DNA from: a virus | Lineage: Duplodnaviria > Heunggongvirae > Uroviricota > Caudoviricetes | Direction: 5' to 3' (one strand) | Length of the DNA: 10,603 nt | Virus record (IMG/VR): IMGVR_UViG_2711768062_000001 | Shown here: in pieces, positions 1,771-8,964 of the stretch | Layout of the letters: each line of letters begins with the position of its first letter | How positions within the stretch are numbered: position 1 is the stretch's first letter | Made by a program: the position numbers and the translations under genes | Notes under the pieces: model-generated | What the model was told of the DNA's origin: nothing | Seen by the model: only the letters and a program-made list of their open reading frames with translations | The model's database searches: none

Positions 1771-2127
1771 TTAAAAAATCAGAACGCCGTGCGGCCTCAA
1801 CACCCGAAAAGCTTCTTTAAATCTCTGTCGCAAATCATCACGCCAGGCATCTTTATTCAGCCGTCCATATTTCTTTCCCATCCAGGCGTTATCACCAACA
1901 CGCTCAAGATGCGGAGGGTCTAATACAACCATCGAAAAAGATGCGTCTGCAAATGATAATGCACGAAAATCTGCGATAATGTCAGGGCTGATAATCAAGC
2001 GTCTCCCATTGCGTAATGTGTATCCTTCTTTTCTGATATCGCTAAATATCGCCCGTTCGTCAGACTTATCGAACCAGAACATGCGGCTGCCACAGCACAT
2101 ATCAAGAATGGTTGCCGGTGCACTCAC
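1771..2127 (-). CDS. DNA methyltransferase-like protein, 118 aa, probably truncated by an in-frame TAA (see findings)
   Basis: Translation has an AdoMet-binding-like N-terminus (ILDMCCGSRMFWFD) and a (D/N/S)PP(Y/F/H)-type motif IV (VVLDPPHL) about 60 residues later, the order seen in amino-MTases. Start ATG overlaps the stop of the upstream 140-aa gene (ATGA at 2124-2127), implying translational coupling. Confidence 0.5.
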   Translation of the reverse strand: MSAPATILDMCCGSRMFWFDKSDERAIFSDIRKEGYTLRNGRRLIISPDIIADFRALSFADASFSMVVLDPPHLERVGDNAWMGKKYGRLNKDAWRDDLRQRFKEAFRVLRPHGVLIF

Positions 2128-2586: not shown

Positions 2587-3552
2587 TTATCCTCTGAAAC
2601 CAGGCGGAATTTCTGTATCCGGTTCAGAAATATGATTAACACAACGCTGTACAGGTGAACGTCCCAGGCGGATGACCAGTTCGTCCCATTTTTCGCGGAG
2701 CTTTGACGGGCTCATGATGTTTTTTACCCAGAATGGATCTCGCTGAATCCGACCAAACATTTCGCAAATTTGTCTGTGGCTTCTGCCATCCAGCATCCGC
2801 ATTGTGCGCACGTCATTGGCCCAGGCAGTCCAGTTAGGCTCTTTTGGTCGCATGATCTCGCCATCATCACTGGCTGCCTGTTCGTAGAGACCCACGATCC
2901 GCCCCCAGATCCACTGCGCACACGCCAAATCCTCCCTGCTACCCCACTGGCGTTTTTTCGCACTAAACACAACCGCGTCGGAGTTCCGGGTTAAAAAATC
3001 CTGTTCAGTCGTCTGCGGGTCCGGTTGCGAAGCTTCCGGACGAAAAGTGTTTTTATTCTCTGTAGTAATCTCTGTTGTATTCTCTGTAAGATCATCAGGC
3101 CATTTTGACCCGATGACATTGGGTCGTTTTGAATCAATGGAGCGTTTCATTTTGACCTCTTCCATCGTGTCATTTTGACCTGATGGAGCGGCGCATTTTG
3201 AACCGATGGATTCGCTCAATTTGCCACCATCTAAAAGCTCGCTCCCATAGTTGATCGTGTAGAAATTGGTCATATCGCGCTTTGATTTATTGAGCTTTTC
3301 ACAACGCAAAAGCCCCAGCGTTTTCAGACTTGCAAACGCGCGCTTTAACGTTGACTCTGACCAGAATGGGAACTGTTCCAGCCATTGTTCCGTTGTGTTA
3401 TAAATCCAGCGAACACCATCACATTCCATGCCGGAGTTGGTATCTCTCAACCAGTAGTGCAGTTGTTGCAAAACAATGGCTTCGTTTAAGCCAATTTTCA
3501 TTGCCAGCTGCGTGTTTATAACCAGTGGGCGTTCAGCAAAAAGAAGGCTCAT
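2587..3552 (-). CDS. phage replication initiator (lambda O-like, two domains with low-complexity linker) containing the putative origin iterons
   Basis: Long ORF; ATG at 3552..3550 preferred (the track's 339-aa form starts at TTG 3606). N-terminal domain ...LVINTQLAMKIGLNEAIVLQQLHYWL...STLKRAFASLKTLGLLRCEKL, then a T/E/N/Q-rich linker, then a Trp-rich C-terminal domain. The linker-coding DNA holds an iteron array (3101-3230), as in the lambda O gene and ori-lambda. Confidence 0.6.
   Translation of the reverse strand: MSLLFAERPLVINTQLAMKIGLNEAIVLQQLHYWLRDTNSGMECDGVRWIYNTTEQWLEQFPFWSESTLKRAFASLKTLGLLRCEKLNKSKRDMTNFYTINYGSELLDGGKLSESIGSKCAAPSGQNDTMEEVKMKRSIDSKRPNVIGSKWPDDLTENTTEITTENKNTFRPEASQPDPQTTEQDFLTRNSDAVVFSAKKRQWGSREDLACAQWIWGRIVGLYEQAASDDGEIMRPKEPNWTAWANDVRTMRMLDGRSHRQICEMFGRIQRDPFWVKNIMSPSKLREKWDELVIRLGRSPVQRCVNHISEPDTEIPPGFRG
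3101..3230. repeat. origin-like iteron array: 5-6 direct repeats of core CATTTTGACC at about 23-bp period
   Basis: Copies start at 3101 (cattttgacc), 3125 (cgttttgaatc, degenerate), 3148 (cattttgacc), 3171 (cattttgacc), 3194 (cattttgaac) and 3218 (caatttgcca, weak). Flanked at 3057-3089 by three TCTCTGT copies at 12-bp period and a short AT-rich patch at 3040-3056. Confidence 0.6.
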
Positions 3553-4054
3553 AATTCCATCCAGCTTTTTGTTGGTATTGCTGTCGATACGCAAGCTTGA
3601 AAGCAATTGCTTTTTCTATAAGTTCGTCAGTTTCACGATCCACTACGGCAGGATCAGCAAAAAGCAGTCCGGACTCCACCACATCGCCATATTCTTTGTT
3701 TAACCCGGCGATCATGCACGTGATGCTTTTTCCGTCAGTAATTTCACGATACAACCTGAAATCACTAATCCGGATAGCCTCCATAATCGCAGGCACTAGC
3801 GCCGTGAACTTTTCACGCTTATCCCTGGTGTCGATAGCCTTCCAGCGTTCGAATATCTTCACTCGATTAACACCAAGCGCTCGCTGATCAACCGCGCCAC
3901 CTTCATCTGTGACACGCTGAACATCGATGTTCGGGCGCTCTTTCAAAGCCCAGAATGCTTCAGTGATTAATATCGTCGCCTGCTCCTGTGTCATTCCTGG
4001 TCGACATATCCAGGCATCCAGAGCCTCACGAGCCTGTTCAGGAGTGATTTTCAT
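3533..4054 (-). CDS. hypothetical early protein, 173 aa, immediately downstream of the cro-like gene (the position occupied by CII/YdaT-type regulators)
   Basis: ATG at 4054..4052 lies 17 nt inside the 3' end of dicC (aacaATGaaaatcactcctgaa), suggesting coupling; protein MKITPEQAREALDAWICRPGMTQEQATILITEAFWALKERPNID.... Function is inferred from position only. Confidence 0.55.
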   Translation of the reverse strand: MKITPEQAREALDAWICRPGMTQEQATILITEAFWALKERPNIDVQRVTDEGGAVDQRALGVNRVKIFERWKAIDTRDKREKFTALVPAIMEAIRISDFRLYREITDGKSITCMIAGLNKEYGDVVESGLLFADPAVVDRETDELIEKAIAFKLAYRQQYQQKAGWNYEPSFC

Positions 4055-4265
4055 TGTTCAACCGCCCCGCCCGCTTCGTCTTACGATATTCATCATAAAC
4101 TTTGGGATCATACTGAAGCTCCCCGCCAGATGCCTCCTGTAGACGCATCGCGCGACCTTCAGGAACCAGTATCCCCCAAGCAGCAACACTTGCCAGCCTC
4201 ACTCCTGCGGCATTGGCAAGCTTTGTTTTGCTGCCAAAAAAAGTAATTGCGTCAACTTTAAGCAT
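4038..4265 (-). CDS. dicC: DicC, Cro-like small DNA-binding protein (75 aa from the ATG; 76 with the preceding TTG)
   Basis: MLKVDAITFFGSKTKLANAAGVRLASVAAWGILVPEGRAMRLQEASGGELQYDPKVYDEYRKTKRAGRLNNENHS. Divergent from dicA across an 80-bp operator region; SD GAGGGGG 5 nt upstream of the ATG. Size and sequence match my recollection of Qin DicC. Confidence 0.7.
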   Translation of the reverse strand: MLKVDAITFFGSKTKLANAAGVRLASVAAWGILVPEGRAMRLQEASGGELQYDPKVYDEYRKTKRAGRLNNENHS

Positions 4266-4278
4266 CAAATCCCCCTCT

Positions 4279-4296
4279 TGTTAGACTTTTCTAACA
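4279..4296. promoter_or_regulatory. operator: perfect inverted repeat TGTTAGA-cttt-TCTAACA in the dicC/dicA intergenic region
   Basis: Read directly from the sequence: 7-bp arms, 4-bp spacer. Overlaps the -10 and predicted start site of the dicC promoter. A degenerate second copy (aattaga-atta-cctaact) lies at 4328-4345, abutting the dicA start codon. Confidence 0.6.
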
Positions 4297-4323
4297 TTAT
4301 TGTGCGCGGGATACCTAAGTCAA
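4296..4323 (-). promoter_or_regulatory. candidate sigma70 promoter for dicC (-35 TTGACT, 16-bp spacer, -10 AATAAT on the minus strand)
   Basis: On the minus strand, TTGACT is at plus coordinates 4323..4318 and AATAAT at 4301..4296. The predicted start falls inside the 4279-4296 operator. Confidence 0.4.
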
Positions 4324-4345
4324 GAAAAATTAGAATTACCTAACT

Positions 4346-4753
4346 ATGGATACAAGAACCCTGGGCCAGCGAGTTCTGGCGCGACGAAAAGAATTACGCT
4401 TAACACAACGAGAAGCCGCGCGCCTCGCTGGAGTTGCTCACGTCACAATTTCACAATGGGAAAGAGACGAAACCCAGCCAGTCGGAAAACGATTGTTTGC
4501 TTTAGCGGATGCTCTGAAGTGCTCACCTACATGGCTAATGTTTGGTGACGAAGACAAGGCACCAGTGCCTGCACAAGAACTTCATGTGGAAACAGAGCTA
4601 ACTCCCAACCACAAAGAATTGATCGAATTATTCGATGCTCTTCCATCTTCCGAGCAGGAAGCCTTGCTGTCTGAAATGCGCGCAAGAGTAGAAAACTTCA
4701 ACAAACTCTTCGAAGAAATGCTTAAAGCGCGTAAAAATAAATCAATAAAATAA
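4346..4753 (+). CDS. dicA: DicA, HTH (XRE/cI-type) repressor of the dicB operon, 135 aa
   Basis: MDTRTLGQRVLARRKELRLTQREAARLAGVAHVTISQWERDETQPVGKRLFALADALKCSPTWLMFGDEDK..., i.e. an N-terminal HTH followed by a C-terminal helical domain. Length, sequence character and context (divergent dicC, dicB operon downstream) match Qin DicA as I recall it. Confidence 0.8.
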   Translation: MDTRTLGQRVLARRKELRLTQREAARLAGVAHVTISQWERDETQPVGKRLFALADALKCSPTWLMFGDEDKAPVPAQELHVETELTPNHKELIELFDALPSSEQEALLSEMRARVENFNKLFEEMLKARKNKSIK

Positions 4754-4788
4754 CATTCTTTTCAAGTGATTAGTTGCGCCCACCCTTT

Positions 4789-4808
4789 TTGTTAGATCAA
4801 TCTAACAA
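4789..4808. promoter_or_regulatory. operator: perfect inverted repeat TTGTTAGA-tcaa-TCTAACAA upstream of the dicB operon
   Basis: 8-bp arms, 4-bp spacer, with the same half-site as the 4279-4296 operator. A degenerate third copy (tgttagg-ttat-tctaaat) at 4826-4843 overlaps the candidate promoter. Confidence 0.6.
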
Positions 4809-4815
4809 AAAACAC

Positions 4816-4844
4816 TTGCCTCTCATGTTAGGTTATTCTAAATT
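4816..4844 (+). promoter_or_regulatory. candidate promoter of the dicB operon (-35 TTGCCT, 17-bp spacer, -10 TAAATT)
   Basis: Weak match to the sigma70 consensus, flanked and overlapped by DicA-type operator copies; the first gene of the operon starts at 4922. Confidence 0.3.
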
Positions 4845-4921
4845 ATTTTCCATCAAGACACCGCACGGTGTTCTCAGCAAACAGTTCCGCTACCCCGGCG
4901 TTAAGGGGAAATGAGGTCAGC

Positions 4922-5077
4922 ATGGATACTATCGATCTTGGCAACAACGAATCTCTGGTGTACGGCGTGTTTCCAAACCAGGACGGCACGTTCACCGCAA
5001 TGACGTATACCAAAAGCAAAACGTTTAAAACCGAATCTGGAGCGCGTCGCTGGCTGGAAAGAAATTCAGGTGGGTGA
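4922..5077 (+). CDS. ydfA: YdfA-like small protein, 51 aa
   Basis: MDTIDLGNNESLVYGVFPNQDGTFTAMTYTKSKTFKTESGARRWLERNSGG; GAGG 6 nt upstream of the ATG. The internal start is preferred over the 69-aa form in the ORF track. First gene of the dicB operon, same length as K-12 ydfA. Confidence 0.7.
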   Translation: MDTIDLGNNESLVYGVFPNQDGTFTAMTYTKSKTFKTESGARRWLERNSGG

Positions 5078-5078
5078 T

Positions 5079-5207
5079 ATGGATTTCGACACAATCATGG
5101 AAAAGGCTTACGAAGAATACTTCGAAGGCCTTGCCGAAGGCGAAGAAGCTCTCAGCTTCAGCGAATTTAAACAGGCGCTTTCCAGTTCGGCAAAATCTAA
5201 CGGCTGA
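5079..5207 (+). CDS. ydfB: YdfB-like small acidic protein, 42 aa
   Basis: ATG at 5079, one nucleotide after the ydfA stop (tGAtATGg); MDFDTIMEKAYEEYFEGLAEGEEALSFSEFKQALSSSAKSNG. Below the ORF-track threshold. Same length and operon position as K-12 ydfB. Confidence 0.65.
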   Translation: MDFDTIMEKAYEEYFEGLAEGEEALSFSEFKQALSSSAKSNG

Positions 5208-5236
5208 TAAGCGAAACAGCACCGCAAGGAATCAGT

Positions 5237-5455
5237 ATGCAGAAACGAGAACCCGTTATCATCGCGCCAGACTATACCGATGATGAACTTTATGAGTGGA
5301 TGCACCAGAAAATTAATGCAGCGCAGGATCTGAAATGGGCTAATGAAGCCAGGGCTAAGCAGGCTGAAAATCTGTTCTCTCTGGAGCAGGATATCACCAA
5401 TCTGGAAAAAGCAGCGGCATTAAGCATTGCCAGAATGATTACATACCCGCGTTAA
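5237..5455 (+). CDS. ydfC: YdfC-like protein, 72 aa
   Basis: MQKREPVIIAPDYTDDELYEWMHQKINAAQDLKWANEARAKQAENLFSLEQDITNLEKAAALSIARMITYPR; SD-like aaggaa upstream. Same length and position as K-12 ydfC. Confidence 0.7.
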   Translation: MQKREPVIIAPDYTDDELYEWMHQKINAAQDLKWANEARAKQAENLFSLEQDITNLEKAAALSIARMITYPR

Positions 5456-5795
5456 TAGCTAACCAACGAAGCTAAGGTTGGTAATTAAGGAGTTCTCCAC
5501 GGGTGAGGTGGAGTGCGTGCGCCGGACACGGGTGAGCATCCGGCACTGACAGTTTACTGAAAGGATATTTCCCTGAAAAGTCAGACCATAACGCGAAAGC
5601 GCACGGCGAGGTAGCTGGTTCATAGATAGCCTGTCGTTAAATTTTCGTCGACCGTGCGCTTCCGGTTGTGGCAACCCGCGAAATGGCGCGGCGGTAAGTA
5701 TGGCGGGGTTATTCCTTCCCCGTTGAGGACACCGGGTTGTCAGGTTGACCATACGCTTAAGTGACAACCCCGCTGCAACGCCCTCTGTTATCAAT

Positions 5796-5853
5796 TTTCT
5801 GGTGACGTTTGGCGGTATCAGTTTTACTCCGTGACTGCTCTGCCGCCCTTTTT
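5796..5853 (+). ncRNA. dicF: DicF small RNA (Hfq-dependent sRNA that represses ftsZ translation), processed from the dicB operon transcript
   Basis: tttctggtgacgtttggcggtatcagttttactccgtgactgctctgccgccctttttaa matches the DicF sequence as I remember it, including the GGCGG...CCGCC stem and U-tract. It lies between ydfC and dicB, after a 340-nt untranslated spacer. Confidence 0.75.
5811..5853 (+). terminator. intrinsic terminator forming the 3' end of DicF (leaky; dicB and ydfD lie downstream)
   Basis: GC stem (ggcgg ... ccgcc) followed by CTTTTT at 5848-5853. Confidence 0.5.
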
Positions 5854-6022
5854 AAAGTGAATTTTGTGATGTGGTGAATGCGGCTGAGCGCACGCGGAAC
5901 AGTTAAAACCAAAAACAGTGTTATGGGTGGATTCTCTGTATCCGGCGTTAATTGTTAACTGGTTAACGTCACCTGGAGGCACCAGGCACCGCATCACAAA
6001 ACTCATTGTTGAGGGCGAGATA

Positions 6023-6211
6023 ATGAAAACGTTATTACCAAACGTTAATACGTCTGAAGGTTGTTTTGAAATTGGTGTCACTATCAGTAACCCTGTATTT
6101 ACTGAAGATGCCATTAACAAGAGAAAACAAGAACGGGAGCTATTAAATAAAATATGCATTGTTTCAATGCTGGCTCGTTTACGTCTGATGCCAAAAGGAT
6201 GTGCACAATGA
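6023..6211 (+). CDS. dicB: DicB, cell-division inhibitor (acts through MinC), 62 aa
   Basis: MKTLLPNVNTSEGCFEIGVTISNPVFTEDAINKRKQERELLNKICIVSMLARLRLMPKGCAQ; GAGGG 7 nt upstream of the ATG. The internal start is preferred over the 97-aa form in the track. Matches DicB as I recall it. Confidence 0.8.
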   Translation: MKTLLPNVNTSEGCFEIGVTISNPVFTEDAINKRKQERELLNKICIVSMLARLRLMPKGCAQ

Positions 6212-6399
6212 ATTCAGCATTTGCGCTTGTTCTGACAGTTTTTCTTGTTTCCGGAGTGCCAGTTGATATTGCAGTCAGTGTTCACAGGACAATGCAGGAG
6301 TGTATGACTGCAGCAACCGAACAGAAAATTCCCGGTAACTGTTACCCGGTCGATAAAGTTATTCACCAGGATAATATCGAAATCCCGGCAGGTCTTTAA
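6208..6399 (+). CDS. ydfD: YdfD, small membrane-anchored protein (reported to be lytic when overexpressed), 63 aa
   Basis: ATG overlaps the dicB stop (ATGA at 6208-6211); MNSAFALVLTVFLVSGVPVDIAVSVHRTMQECMTAATEQKIPGNCYPVDKVIHQDNIEIPAGL with an N-terminal hydrophobic helix. Length and position match K-12 ydfD. Confidence 0.7.
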   Translation: MNSAFALVLTVFLVSGVPVDIAVSVHRTMQECMTAATEQKIPGNCYPVDKVIHQDNIEIPAGL

Positions 6400-6492: not shown

Positions 6493-8964
6493 ATGAGTAA
6501 AGTCTTTATTTGCGCCGCTATTCCTGACGAACTGGCAACAAGGGAAGAAGGCGCTGTGGCTGTAGCCACAGCCATTGAAGCTGGCGACGAACGCCGTGCT
6601 CGAGCAAAATTTCACTGGCAATTCCTGGAACATTATCCGGCTGCTCAGGACTGCGCTTATAAATTTATTGTCTGCGAGGATAAACCTGGTATACCCCGCC
6701 CTGCCCTCGATTCATGGGATGCTGAATATATGCAGGAAAACCGCTGGGATGAGGAGTCTGCTTCTTTTGTCCCGGTTGAGACTGAATCCGATCCGATGAA
6801 CGTCACTTTTGACAAGCTGGCCCCTGAAGTACAGAACGCTGTCATGGTTAAGTTCGACACATGTGAAAACATCACCGTTGATATGGTTATTAGCGCACAG
6901 GAATTGTTGCAGGAAGACATGGCAACATTCAACGGACATATCGTTGAAGCGTTGATGAAAATGCCAGAAGTTAACGCCATGTATCCGGAGCTTAAGTTGC
7001 ACGCCATTGGGTGGGTTAAGCATAAATGTATTCCTGGTGCTAAATGGCCCGAAATTCAGGCAGAGATGCGCATCTGGAAAAAACGTCGCGAAGGTGGACG
7101 CAAGGAAACCGGAAAATACACGTCTGTTGTTGATCTCGCCCGCGCCAGAGCCAATCAACAGTACACTGAAAATTCAACAGGAAAAATCAGCCCGGTCATT
7201 GCTGCCATTCATCGCGAATACAAGCAGACATGGAAAACACTGGATGACGAACTGGCCTACGCTCTCTGGCCTGGTGATGTGGATGCCGGAAACATTGACG
7301 GCAGCATCCATCGCTGGGCAAAAAATGAAGTTATCGACAACGACCGCGAAGACTGGAAGCGTATCTCGGCATCAATACGCAAACAGCCTGATGCCCTTCG
7401 CTACGACCGCCAAACTATTTTTGGCCTTGTCCGTGAGCGTCCGATCGACATTCACAAAGATCCCGTAGCACTGAACAAATATATCTGCGAATACCTGACG
7501 ACAAAGGGCGTGTTTGAGAATGAAGAAACAGACCTGGGCACTGTTGATGTTCTCAAGTCATCAGAAACACAAACTGATGCAGTGGAAACTGAGGTATCTG
7601 ATATCCCAAAAAATGAAACCGCACCGGAAGCTGAACCATCTGTAGAGCGTGAGGGGCCGTTCTATTTCCTCTTCGCAGATAAGGACGGAGAAAAATACGG
7701 TCGCGCAAACAAACTTTCTGGTCTGGATAAGGCACTGGCTGCTGGCGCCACTGAAATCACAAAAGAAGAATATTTTGCCCGAAAAAATGGCACATACACG
7801 GGCTTACCGCAAAATGTAGATACCGCTGAAGATTCAGAACAACCAGAGCCGATAAAAGTTACCGCTGACGAAGTAAACAAAATTATGCAGGCAGCCAATA
7901 TCAGCCAGCCTGACGCCGATAAGTTGCTTGCTGCATCACGTGGTGAATTTGTTGAAGGGATTAGTGACCCGAATGATCCGAAATGGGTTAAGGGGATCCA
8001 GACCCGCGATTCTGTGAACCAGAACCAGCATGAATCGGAACGGAACTACCAAAAAGCGGAACAAAACAGCCCAAATGCGTTACAAAACGAGCCAGAAACG
8101 AAACAGCCTGAATCAGTGGCGCAACAGGAAGTGGAAAAAGTCTGCACCGCCTGCGGTCAGACCGGCGGCGGCAACTGCCCTGATTGTGGCGCGGTGATGG
8201 GCGACGCAACATACCAAGAAACATTCGATGAAGAGTATCAGGTTGAAGTTCAGGAAGATGATCCGGAGGAAATGGAAGGCGCTGAACATCCACACAAGGA
8301 GAACGCTGGCGGCAATCAGCATCACGATAGCGATAATGAAACTGGCGAGACGGCAGATCACTCAATTAAGGTGAACGGTCATCACGAAATCACATCCACC
8401 AGCAGGACGTGTGACCATCTAATGATCGACCTTGAAACCATGGGAAAAAATCCTGATGCCCCGATCATCTCAATAGGTGCAATATTTTTCGATCCGCAAA
8501 CCGGAGATATGGGACCGGAATTTAGTAAGACTATCGATCTGGAAACTGCTGGCGGAGTCATTGATCGGGACACCATTAAATGGTGGCTTAAGCAATCACG
8601 CGAAGCGCAATCGGCCATTATGACCGATGAAATCCCGTTAGATGATGCACTGTTACAATTGCGGGAATTTATCGACGAAAACTCCGGTGAATTTTTTGTT
8701 CAGGTTTGGGGAAATGGAGCCAACTTCGACAACACGATTTTGCGCCGTTCATACGAACGGCAGGGGATCCCCTGCCCGTGGCGTTACTACAACGATCGCG
8801 ATGTACGCACAATCGTTGAGCTGGGGAAAGCCATAGACTTCGATGCCAGAACGGCTATTCCATTCGAAGGTGAGCGCCATAATGCACTTGATGACGCCCG
8901 TTACCAGGCAAAATACGTTTCAGTTATCTGGCAAAAACTGATCCCGAGTCAGGCTGATTCTTAA
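6493..8964 (+). CDS. ydfE: YdfE, full-length form (823 aa): N-terminal domain of unknown function, acidic low-complexity linker with a C4 zinc ribbon, C-terminal DEDDh 3'-5' exonuclease domain
   Basis: Uninterrupted 2472-nt ORF with GAGG upstream. The N-terminus MSKVFICAAIPDELATREEGAVAVATAIEAGDERRARAKFHWQFLEHYPAAQD matches my recollection of the K-12 YdfE fragment. C-terminal motifs MIDLETMG (Exo I), WGNGANFD (Exo II) and ERHNALDDARYQA (Exo III, His variant); zinc ribbon CTACGQTGGGNCPDCG at about 8143-8200. Confidence 0.8.
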   Translation: MSKVFICAAIPDELATREEGAVAVATAIEAGDERRARAKFHWQFLEHYPAAQDCAYKFIVCEDKPGIPRPALDSWDAEYMQENRWDEESASFVPVETESDPMNVTFDKLAPEVQNAVMVKFDTCENITVDMVISAQELLQEDMATFNGHIVEALMKMPEVNAMYPELKLHAIGWVKHKCIPGAKWPEIQAEMRIWKKRREGGRKETGKYTSVVDLARARANQQYTENSTGKISPVIAAIHREYKQTWKTLDDELAYALWPGDVDAGNIDGSIHRWAKNEVIDNDREDWKRISASIRKQPDALRYDRQTIFGLVRERPIDIHKDPVALNKYICEYLTTKGVFENEETDLGTVDVLKSSETQTDAVETEVSDIPKNETAPEAEPSVEREGPFYFLFADKDGEKYGRANKLSGLDKALAAGATEITKEEYFARKNGTYTGLPQNVDTAEDSEQPEPIKVTADEVNKIMQAANISQPDADKLLAASRGEFVEGISDPNDPKWVKGIQTRDSVNQNQHESERNYQKAEQNSPNALQNEPETKQPESVAQQEVEKVCTACGQTGGGNCPDCGAVMGDATYQETFDEEYQVEVQEDDPEEMEGAEHPHKENAGGNQHHDSDNETGETADHSIKVNGHHEITSTSRTCDHLMIDLETMGKNPDAPIISIGAIFFDPQTGDMGPEFSKTIDLETAGGVIDRDTIKWWLKQSREAQSAIMTDEIPLDDALLQLREFIDENSGEFFVQVWGNGANFDNTILRRSYERQGIPCPWRYYNDRDVRTIVELGKAIDFDARTAIPFEGERHNALDDARYQAKYVSVIWQKLIPSQADS

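Follow-up and report, generated by a model that had tools for sequence, protein, structure and literature searches.

Candidate operators of a probable P22-type immunity switch in a Qin-type Escherichia coli prophage whose dicA allele differs from that of K-12

Perfect inverted repeats lie on both sides of a repressor gene in a 10,603-nt stretch of tailed-phage DNA (IMG/VR record IMGVR_UViG_2711768062_000001; hereafter the window), raising the question of which protein reads them and which promoters they govern. The window belongs to a Qin-type E. coli prophage and carries dicC, dicA, ydfABC, the DicF RNA, dicB, ydfD, an exonuclease gene, xis and int (Table 1). RefSeq annotation of an identical region agrees with our gene assignments. 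The locus adjoins rspB, and its gene order at the Qin attachment site, dicC (minus strand), dicA (plus strand) and ydfA-ydfB-ydfC-DicF-dicB-ydfD, is that of a Qin-type switch. From position 4635 onward, nucleotide identity to K-12 is 96%. The dicA allele is present in ~9% of complete E. coli genomes, laboratory derivatives of E. coli B among them.

The two regulators are encoded divergently and pair a CI/C2-like helix-turn-helix repressor with a Cro-like protein, as in lambdoid immunity regions of the P22 type. DicC matches the P22_Cro family above the curated Pfam cut-off, and the N-terminal domain of P22 C2 matches DicA residues 1–71 at 1.3e-18. DicA has no Pfam match besides HTH_3 above curated cut-offs and thus no S24 peptidase domain, an absence likewise noted for K-12 DicA (PMC10448788). 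DicC is 86% identical to its K-12 counterpart, with the differences concentrated in the N-terminal helix-turn-helix part; for DicA, identity falls to 55%. A diverged cassette encloses every operator and the DNA-binding determinants of both proteins. It holds the helix-turn-helix coding part of dicC, the sites Oc, Om and Oa, dicA, the sites B1 and B2, and the promoter dicBp; identity to K-12 per 30-nt bin is 33–83% within it and 97–100% immediately outside on both sides. Judged by its sequence, the locus is very probably the P22 immC-type immunity switch of a Qin-type lambdoid prophage, in an allele other than that of K-12.

Table 1. Genes, promoter elements and candidate operators of the immunity region (window coordinates)
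Feature	Position	Strand	Basis or description
Diverged immunity cassette	4150..4855	.	~700 bp; identity to K-12 by 30-nt bins
dicC, Cro-like regulator	4038..4265	-	75 aa from ATG at 4265; Pfam P22_Cro 4.9e-12
Oc, strong candidate operator	4278..4297	.	TTGTTAG-ACTTTT-CTAACAT; exact pattern match
dicCp promoter, PR analogue	4296..4323	-	-35 TTGACT (4323-4318), 16-nt spacer, -10 AATAAT (4301-4296)
Om, weak middle candidate operator	4302..4321	.	GTGCGCGGGATAC-CTAAG-TC; position and type-specific right half
Oa, degenerate candidate operator	4327..4346	.	AAATTAG-AATTAC-CTAACTA; 4 mismatches; position kept
Candidate dicAp -10, PRM analogue	4331..4336	+	TAGAAT; read from sequence
dicA, short cI-like repressor	4346..4753	+	135 aa; Pfam HTH_3 1.5e-14
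B1, distal dicBp candidate operator	4786..4811	.	20-bp core TTGTTAG-ATCAAT-CTAACAA at 4789-4808
dicBp promoter, PL analogue	4816..4844	+	-35 TTGCCT (4816-4821), 17-nt spacer, -10 TAAATT (4839-4844)
B2, proximal dicBp candidate operator	4825..4844	.	ATGTTAG-GTTATT-CTAAATT; 3-mismatch match
Regulated operon	4922..6399	+	Rfam DicF, RefSeq annotation, nucleotide identity to K-12
ydfA	4922-5077	+	within regulated operon
ydfB	5079-5207	+	within regulated operon
ydfC	5237-5455	+	within regulated operon
DicF RNA	5797-5848	+	Rfam 76.7 bits vs gathering score 48
dicB	6023-6211	+	within regulated operon
ydfD	6208-6399	+	within regulated operon

A pattern search of the window found TGTTAGA-N4-TCTAACA exactly at 4279-4296 and 4790-4807, and with three mismatches at 4826-4843 (TGTTAGGTTATTCTAAAT). 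At this tolerance (at most three mismatches) 0.39 copies are expected in the window, and at least three copies arose in 0 of 200 shuffles. A sequence-only reading of the window had already pointed to a perfect palindrome at the first of these places and a degenerate one at the third, and both are borne out. The perfect palindrome that it placed at 4789-4808, with 8-bp arms, is real but larger, with 12-nt perfect arms (4786-4797 and 4800-4811) around a 2-nt centre. Its fourth copy, at 4328-4345 (AATTAGAATTACCTAACT), mismatches at 4 of 14 positions; seven sites of that quality occur in the window against 4.6 expected, and seven were reached in 49 of 300 shuffles. Because this match is at chance level, the support for the copy lies in its place and in family-wide conservation of its position, not in its letters. 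Comparison with K-12 and with variants of the present allele suggests that the conserved unit, proposed earlier to be legible directly as TGTTAGA-N4-TCTAACA, is better written as a 20-bp site, TTGTTAG-N6-CTAACAA. A search for further operators with at most three mismatches, covering the prophage and flanking DNA (41 kb), returned only Oc and B1 and none near rem or elsewhere, a count not above that of shuffles. A full-text literature search found no biochemical definition of the DicA motif by ChIP-exo, SELEX or footprinting.

Between dicC and dicA, the earlier reading had described a pair of operators overlapping a dicC promoter. The promoter stands, being the only sigma-70-like match in 4000-5000 (10/12 positions, minus strand), and candidate operators are present, but as three sites with centre-to-centre spacings of 24 bp (Om to Oc) and 25 bp (Om to Oa). 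Oc, the one clear site of this tripartite layout in the present allele, carries the TTGTTAG...CTAACAA core that a Qin-type switch has where the dicCp -10 meets the transcription start. Extending from -8 to +12, it takes in the final 2 nt of the -10 together with the predicted dicC start (~4289). Among 20 haplotypes, 0 of 7 columns vary in its left half and 3 of 6 in its centre. The weak site Om has a poor left half in this allele, and its right half-site abuts the dicCp -35. Oa, likewise weak, overlaps a candidate -10 of dicA, and its last base is the A of the dicA ATG; none of its 20 columns varies among the 20 haplotypes. The dicA promoter may thus sit inside this third site. By reading of the sequence it has no recognizable -35, and dicA has no Shine-Dalgarno sequence; the leader would be ~2-3 nt long.

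Downstream of dicA, B1 and B2 resemble the second operator set of OL/PL type, with two sites instead of three and their centres 36 bp apart. B1 lies just upstream of the dicBp -35 (about -63 to -44) and continues into an A-tract. B2 fills the promoter spacer, with the -10 hexamer itself forming its right half. The predicted dicBp start would fall at ~4851-4852; the promoter matches the consensus at only 8 of 12 positions and is below the promoter-scan threshold. Among 34 haplotypes of the allele, 3 of 14 half-site columns of B1 vary (minor-allele sum 6), compared with 5 of 6 columns in its centre (sum 29) and 15 of 32 in the upstream flank. B2 is nearly invariant, with variation at 4 of 4 columns in the nucleotides just upstream. 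Candidate operators accompany both promoters of the earlier proposal, those of dicC and of the ydfA-dicF-dicB operon, while the count of two promoters gives way to three (dicCp, dicAp and dicBp).

The layout recurs across 21 DicA helix-turn-helix types. Measured from the dicA ATG, positions are fixed (Oc -68/-69, Om -44/-43, Oa -19), and the downstream order B1, -35, B2, -10 is the same throughout, while the half-site differs by type and changes with the linked repressor. Within the present allele the half-sites are nearly invariant and the centres and flanks vary (20 and 34 haplotypes). The promoters are kept as well: the AGTCAA element of dicCp in nearly all types, a TAnnAT/TAnnTT hexamer (TAGAAT, TAGCAT, TAAGAT or TATATT) at the dicAp -10 position in every type, and TTGnnn-17-TAnnnT followed by CCATCAA at the place of dicBp in nearly all. 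The right half of Om is type-specific, with 3.9 of 5 matches to the cognate half-site against 2.9 to non-cognate ones (0/20000 permutations). Other types carry the cognate half-site at the B1 position, and the left half of B2 tracks it too. Scoring with a 7+6+7 model worked for the TTGTTAG, TCCTTAG and TTGTTGA groups but failed for other geometries (ATAACT-N2-AGTTAT and TAAC-N4-GTTA; types L094, L097 and L098), and it was replaced by a register-free test of shared 6-mers. In that test, 6-mers of Oc recur in the cognate dicBp region, with 8.5 shared against 2.6 for different specificity groups (0/20000 permutations); the sequences are related, so permutation tests of this kind overstate their independence.

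The half-site also follows particular parts of the repressor. A helix 2 beginning TQR goes with an outer triplet TTG in 10/10 types, SQA with TCC, CCC or TTC in 4/4, and SQN with ATA or AAG in 3/3; for helix 3, ...SQW accompanies inner bases TTAG and ...SLW accompanies TTRAG. Recognition by these short P22-C2-like repressors looks modular, with the start of helix 2 tracking the outer triplet and helix 3 the inner bases.

Early descriptions of the K-12 dic switch reportedly go back to Bejar et al. in 1986 and 1988. Later descriptions of the K-12 Qin switch (Yun et al. 2012, PMC3441716; Ragunathan et al. 2023, PMC10448788) provide functional evidence, all of it obtained by others on the K-12 allele. 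There, DicA occupies Oc (TTGTTAGTCATAACTAACAA) in vivo; the interaction depends on dicA and on the sequence of the site, and it is lost upon one A-to-C substitution (CTAACAA to CTCACAA). Om and Oa, tested singly in vivo, did not bind DicA (PMC3441716). The annotated K-12 DicA site is at -8 to +12 of dicCp (bioRxiv 10.1101/2025.05.13.653802), and two independent reports found that plasmid copies of K-12 Oc titrate DicA (PMC3441716; bioRxiv 10.1101/2025.05.13.653802). The K-12 dicC 5′ end, mapped by RACE, lies downstream of the equivalent -10, and K-12 dicA, which has no consensus promoter, needs DicA at Oc for its expression (PMC3441716). DicA represses dicBp, DicA and DicC act as a bistable pair, and the antirepressor Rem derepresses dicBp 165-fold (PMC10448788).

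The two Qin prophages share the chromosomal site next to rspB, the gene order dicC, dicA, ydfABC, DicF, dicB, ydfD, the operator core TTGTTAG-N6-CTAACAA, the register of Oc on the dicCp -10 and start, the arrangement of three candidate sites between dicC and dicA and two around dicBp, and an identical Rem protein. They differ in DicA and the rest of the diverged cassette, including operator centres and flanks. B1, a perfect 12+2+12 palindrome here, is degenerate in K-12, and the left half of Om is weaker here than in K-12. The ydaT-like, replication, exonuclease, xis and int genes are intact here and lost or disrupted in K-12. In the present allele, DicA would likewise bind these operators and repress dicC and dicBp, which the phylogenetic footprint within the allele and the co-variation of half-site and repressor support indirectly. 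The earlier proposal that the palindromes are DicA operators for dicC and the ydfA-dicF-dicB operon accords with this evidence, with the core and register of K-12 Oc and with repression of dicBp in K-12.

Starting from sites that exist beyond chance, overlap promoters, are conserved and co-vary with the linked repressor, we infer for the present allele binding by its own DicA and DicC, the dicA and dicBp starts, and cooperativity. A DicA dimer would bind the 20-bp operators through their TTGTTAG-N6-CTAACAA core. At Oc it would cover -8 to +12 of dicCp and block transcription of the cro-like dicC and, by analogy with K-12, also stimulate dicAp, which is weak and nearly leaderless. On the other side of dicA, binding at B1 (4789-4808) and B2 would occupy the region just upstream of the -35, the spacer and the -10 of dicBp, keeping ydfABC, DicF, dicB and ydfD silent. 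The degeneracy of the weaker sites would come from overlap with promoter elements: the left half of Oa with the dicA -10 (TAGAAT), the right half of B2 with the dicBp -10 (TAAATT), and the right half of Om adjoining the dicCp -35. Since Om and Oa of K-12 did not bind singly, such copies, taken alone, may not serve DicA. They probably need cooperative DicA binding or are preferred DicC sites, through which DicC would turn dicA off as the switch changes state. Lacking an S24 domain, DicA would be inactivated at induction by Rem and not by RecA-dependent cleavage.

The palindromes could instead be mainly operators of the Cro-like DicC, with DicA acting elsewhere or indirectly. In lambdoid phages, Cro and the repressor share their operators, DicC is a helix-turn-helix protein of the P22_Cro family, and its N-terminal part falls inside the diverged cassette that holds the operators. 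Om and Oa of K-12, moreover, did not bind DicA alone (PMC3441716). Against this, K-12 Oc has the same core and is bound in vivo by DicA itself (PMC3441716), and the half-site alters in step with the DicA helix-turn-helix. Use by DicC alone is unsupported and very unlikely; sharing is expected, and DicC very likely uses the same sites as DicA. That the repeats are chance products of an A+T-rich region, or sites for host nucleoid proteins, fits the composition of the locus and the influence of H-NS with a Cnu variant and of YjdC (DicD) on dic expression in K-12. Yet the shuffles never yielded three copies, and the sites hold fixed positions in 21 types while the half-site varies with the linked repressor, which argues against a host factor, since that would predict one motif in all types. 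We disfavour this reading as extremely improbable.

The long palindrome around B1 might act in RNA, as a hairpin terminating or stabilizing the dicA transcript, either in place of an operator role or besides it. It lies 33 nt past the dicA stop codon, its RNA pairs into an 11-bp stem, and folding of the 100-nt region gives -16.2 kcal/mol (z = -2.4). The terminator scan found no other terminator-like element between dicA and dicBp in this allele, and several other types (L097, L113) have a G+C-rich hairpin with a T-run there. The scan did not match the palindrome either, however, because its stem is A/U-rich and is followed by ACACUUGCC and not by a U-tract. Oc and B2 carry the same half-sites in places where such a hairpin role is impossible. 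The central bases are free to vary while the half-sites are kept, and K-12 B1 (ATGTTAGCTATAGCATACAA) forms no long palindrome; both points indicate recognition by a protein. Terminator scan and RNA folding leave a hairpin or terminator unsupported as the main function, and we consider it quite unlikely. DNA-bound DicA at B1 could possibly serve in addition as a roadblock to read-through.

Read as DicA operators, the sites can be set beside those of better-known switches. In P22 immC, as here, the two regulatory genes are divergent, a second operator set lies on the promoter downstream of the repressor gene, and the operators are palindromic; the tripartite operator between the P22 genes may have its counterpart in Oc with the weak sites Om and Oa. 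On the protein side, DicA shares homology with C2 in the N-terminal domain, and DicC is a P22_Cro member. P22 operator palindromes have a variable, probably uncontacted centre (C2-operator structures 2R1J and 3JXB), and the centre is variable here too. The P22 half-site is ATTTAAG, compared with TTGTTAG here. C2 has an S24 autocleavage domain, whereas DicA has a short helical C-terminal part, and just two sites, 36 bp apart, were found at dicBp.

The logic would also be that of lambda, in which the repressor blocks the PR and PL analogues and activates its own weak promoter, Cro counteracts it, and the repressor gene is transcribed toward the PL analogue. Spacings in lambda OR are 24 and 23 bp, against 24 and 25 bp here, and lambda cI mRNA from PRM is essentially leaderless, as predicted here for the repressor mRNA. 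Lambda operators have no sequence homology to those described here, and the OL spacing of 24/20 bp does not correspond to the 36 bp between B1 and B2. All three intergenic sites are ~10 bp closer to the inferred dicA start than OR1-3 are to PRM, and therefore the geometry of activation may differ. Lambdoid repressors self-cleave under RecA stimulation through an S24 domain; DicA, with helix-turn-helix families only, has no RecA-sensitive domain. On its domain content, the switch would work in lambdoid fashion yet belong to a non-cleavable, antirepressor-controlled subclass. The prophage carries a rem gene identical to that of K-12, and the short GfoR/GfhR repressors of Gifsy prophages, non-cleavable and inactivated by a small antirepressor, would resemble DicA in their mode of control.

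The switch interpretation is supported but is not new: such a switch was described in 1986-88 and 2012, so this is not a discovery, and conceptually a lambdoid switch is textbook material. Its practical value is modest. DicA, at ~20 molecules per cell, silences DicB and DicF, which are toxic inhibitors of division, and operator copies carried on plasmids titrate these ~20 molecules and harm the host; with the allele in ~9% of complete genomes, operator coordinates are therefore useful for annotation, cloning safety and reporter design. For DicA action at dicBp, where RegulonDB (as quoted by Reg-Seq) rates the site as low evidence with unknown location, the comparison also supplies support at the level of sequence.

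Since two DicA alleles that are 55% identical share the TTGTTAG core, repression may cross between Qin-type prophages that differ in their dicA allele, making them homoimmune in function. We put forward tentatively, as one picture that we hold to be possible but not probable, that dicA alleles cross-repress, that a modular recognition code applies, and that Rem acts through a conserved C-terminal part of DicA. If true, specificity would be a readable code from which immunity groups could be predicted from sequence, and the identical Rem, paired with both alleles, would act on that conserved C-terminal part.

In the sequence-only reading, DicA was proposed to repress both dicC and the dicB operon through TGTTAGA-N4-TCTAACA operators. 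A pattern scan found this sequence exactly at 4279-4296, as that reading had it, and at 4790-4807, and confirmed a degenerate copy with three mismatches at 4826-4843; three occurrences compare with 0.39 expected, and 0 of 200 shuffles gave three. The arms of the second palindrome proved longer than first read (a perfect 12+2+12 palindrome, 4786-4811), and the further copy proposed at 4328-4345 is present but, with four mismatches, lies at chance frequency in the window (7 seen versus 4.6 expected). The core of the proposed 7-bp arm was kept, but its position 7 varies (TCTAACA/CCTAACA, TGTTAGA/TGTTAGG), so that the conserved unit is TTGTTAG-N6-CTAACAA. The sole sigma-70-like match in 4000-5000 was the proposed dicC promoter (dicCp), minus-strand TTGACT-16-AATAAT at 4323..4296, which overlaps the first palindrome by the final two bases of its -10. 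A search across 41 kb of prophage and flanking DNA revealed no further operator sites. Open reading frames, an Rfam match to DicF and the annotation of the matching prophage region bore out the gene names.

Genes and promoter elements in the window
Feature	Position	Strand	Remark
ydaT-like gene	3533-4054	-	
dicC	4038-4265	-	
TAGAAT	4331-4336		within Oa
dicA	4346-4753	+	
A-tract	4805-4812		3' of B1
candidate dicBp -35, TTGCCT	4816-4821		
candidate dicBp -10, TAAATT	4839-4844		right half of B2
ydfA, ydfB, ydfC			after dicA in gene order
DicF RNA	5797-5848		Rfam 76.7 bits
dicB, ydfD			after DicF RNA in gene order
exonuclease (823 aa)	6493-8964	+	after ydfD in gene order
xis, int			last in gene order, after ydfD

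In K-12, the strong operator of the dicC-dicA spacer, Oc (TTGTTAGTCATAACTAACAA), is bound by DicA in vivo in a dicA-dependent manner, and binding is abolished by one change to CTCACAA (Yun et al. 2012, PMC3441716). High-copy clones of the K-12 region survive only if Oc is mutated, since the intact site titrates DicA (PMC3441716); the titration effect was seen again in a later Reg-Seq study, where the annotated K-12 DicA site is quoted as -8 to +12 of dicCp (bioRxiv 10.1101/2025.05.13.653802). The window's dicCp -10 ends at 4296, which puts the predicted start at about 4289; the 20-mer 4278-4297, TTGTTAGACTTTTCTAACAT, then occupies exactly -8 to +12. Its core half-sites are identical to those of K-12 Oc, with differences confined to the six central bases. 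DicA also represses the promoter of the ydfA-dicF-dicB operon, dicBp, in K-12 (Ragunathan et al. 2023, PMC10448788), and that paper credits Bejar et al. 1988 with the description of three operator-like sequences per intergenic region. With the corrections above, the proposed interpretation is supported and constitutes a correct rediscovery of the published K-12 system: the switch is well known, its operator core had already been published, and the new element is the allele. Beyond that, only mildly new are the dicBp operators fixed by comparison, the apparent modularity between helix-turn-helix (HTH) residues and operator bases, and an identical Rem antirepressor paired with a much-diverged DicA.

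The N-terminal domain of DicA is homologous to that of P22 C2 (1.3e-18), a domain search found no S24 peptidase domain in DicA, and DicC belongs to the P22_Cro family. Three 20-bp sites lie in the dicC-dicA spacer, centred at 4287.5, 4311.5 and 4336.5 (spacing 24 and 25 bp). Oc lies over the edge of the dicCp -10 and the predicted start site, the middle site Om over the dicCp spacer and the edge of the -35, and the third, predicted site Oa contains TAGAAT nine nucleotides before the dicA ATG. In K-12, DicA did not bind Om or Oa when tested singly, and dicA has no recognisable promoter, its expression depending on DicA at Oc (PMC3441716); the weak sites therefore probably need cooperativity or serve DicC. 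A dicA Shine-Dalgarno was absent from the window (4327-4348) and from every one of 13 diverse loci (L085-L100) lined up at the dicA start codon. In each of them the end of a -10-like hexamer (TAGAAT, TAGCAT, TAAGAT or TATATT) falls 10 nt ahead of the A of that codon. This arrangement points to a weak PRM-like promoter from which dicA is probably transcribed, and suggests an mRNA that is leaderless or carries a 2-3-nt leader, like lambda cI from PRM.

At dicBp, the distal operator B1 lies directly upstream of the candidate -35 and runs into an A-tract, and the proximal operator B2 occupies the 17-nt promoter spacer. The degenerate sites depart from the operator pattern at the places where they also serve as promoter elements, which explains why Oc and B1 alone are perfect. 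The A-tract stands directly 3' of B1 and 5' of the dicBp -35 in nearly all repressor types, whatever the operator (CAAAAAAC, CAAAATTCC, CAAAAATAAC, CAAAAAGCC). It is similar to a proximal UP-element subsite, so that DicA bound to B1 might in addition keep the alpha-CTD from making contact. That the B1 palindrome instead acts as an RNA hairpin or terminator is very improbable, given that its RNA stem is A/U-rich and lacks a U-tract, that a terminator scan gave no call, and that its half-sites recur at places where a hairpin role is impossible. No obvious terminator-like element lies between the dicA stop and dicBp (window 4754-4788), in this allele or in K-12, so that as a secondary role DicA on B1 could form a roadblock to dicA read-through into the toxic operon. 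Several other types (loci L097 and L113) have a G+C-rich hairpin and T-run downstream of dicA.

The assignment of these sites to DicA draws on 21 distinct DicA HTH types, collected from one species-representative genome scan and three viral-contig scans. In nearly all, the first palindrome begins 68-69 nt upstream of the dicA ATG, the right half of a second site (-44/-43) abuts the conserved AGTCAA (the dicCp -35), and a third lies at -19; 3' of dicA follow a palindrome, the A-tract, TTGnnn, 17 nt with another copy, TAnnnT and CCATCAA. The half-site changes with repressor type: TTGTTAG...CTAACAA in this allele, K-12 and three other types, TCCTTAG...CTAAGGA in a common SQAALGK...VAHVTISQW type, and TTGTTGA...TTAACAA or ATTGAG...CTCAAT in two groups of ...ISLWES types. 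In a register-free test, 6-mers of the Oc region recurred in their own dicBp region (mean 8.5 shared versus 2.6 for other specificity groups; Mann-Whitney p 3e-8; a sum as high as that observed in 0 of 20000 permutations), and the right half of Om likewise followed the repressor type (0 of 20000 permutations); relatedness among the loci makes these p values generous. Even so, the pattern is the one expected if operators co-evolve with the repressor that binds them, and is not that expected of sites for a host factor or of repeats arising by chance.

Upstream regions of L001, L085-L100, L109-L113 and L191-L197, lineages that are non-independent, were compared with DicA residues. The start of helix 2 goes with the outer triplet (TQR with TTG in 10/10 types, SQA with TCC/CCC/TTC in 4/4, SQN with ATA/AAG in 3/3) and helix 3 with the inner bases (...SQW with TTAG, ...SLW with TTRAG), an apparent modular co-variation that we offer as a hypothesis only.

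Within the allele, 82 loci carrying this DicA at 99-100% protein identity (dicA nucleotide identity 93-100%) yielded 20 different haplotypes on the upstream side and 34 on the downstream side. Variable columns and minor-allele sums were 0/7 and 0 in the left half of Oc, 3/6 and 21 in its centre, and 2/7 and 8 in its right half. Both B1 half-sites together gave 3/14 and 6, and the B1 centre 5/6 and 29; the 32 nt from the dicA stop to B1 gave 15/32 and 103, and the 4 nt directly upstream of B2 gave 4/4 and 36. B2 was almost invariant across the downstream haplotypes. Oa was invariant (0/20 and 0), which alone is uninformative, as the site shares bases with the dicA start codon and candidate -10.

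Compared with K-12, DicA is just 55% identical and DicC 86%. A sliding comparison delimits a diverged block at ~4150-4855 (33-83% identity per 30 nt) with sharp boundaries to flanks of 97-100% identity, up to ~4147, inside dicC past its HTH-coding part, and from ~4856, directly after the dicBp -10. The block holds the HTH-coding part of dicC, the dicC-dicA spacer and the whole of dicA through to the dicBp -10. It is a classical immunity cassette swapped by recombination in conserved flanks, in which all proposed operators and both DNA-binding determinants are inherited together. Of 5426 complete E. coli genomes, 477 have the allele's regulatory region, in one copy each, E. coli B derivatives included; in the latter (H33, H36; strain C3029, NEBExpress) the dicBp operator region is 98.7% identical over 75 nt, so a convenient experimental host exists already. 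The antirepressor gene rem lies outside the window, ~8 kb past dicC in the same prophage (L002:12341-12592, minus strand; L002 is 41 kb of the prophage and flanks), and its product is 100% identical to K-12 Rem (83/83 residues), paired here with the 55%-identical DicA that it is expected to inactivate. There are two ways to account for this: Rem recognises a segment common to both DicA proteins (for example CSPTW..FGDEDK or, at the C terminus, EMRARV.NFNKLFEE.LKAR), or one of the two strains has a mismatched Rem-DicA pair.

Many E. coli chromosomes match the window at 100% identity, and in NZ_CP027462 it lies inside a prophage adjoining rspB, the site of cryptic prophage Qin in K-12. On the far side of the replication genes, at 1771-2127 (minus strand) and L002:16840-18183, several genes are annotated as frameshifted or interrupted by stop codons (a SAM-dependent methyltransferase, a DUF7167 protein and a hypothetical protein), and a truncated ISEsa1 transposase lies directly outside the window; the prophage is thus still partly degraded. 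The reading frame annotated as an exonuclease is intact, its middle part long, acidic and of low complexity, whereas K-12 Qin has at this position just the ydfE pseudogene, split by IS2. As xis and int are also retained, this Qin copy is far less decayed on that side than that of K-12.
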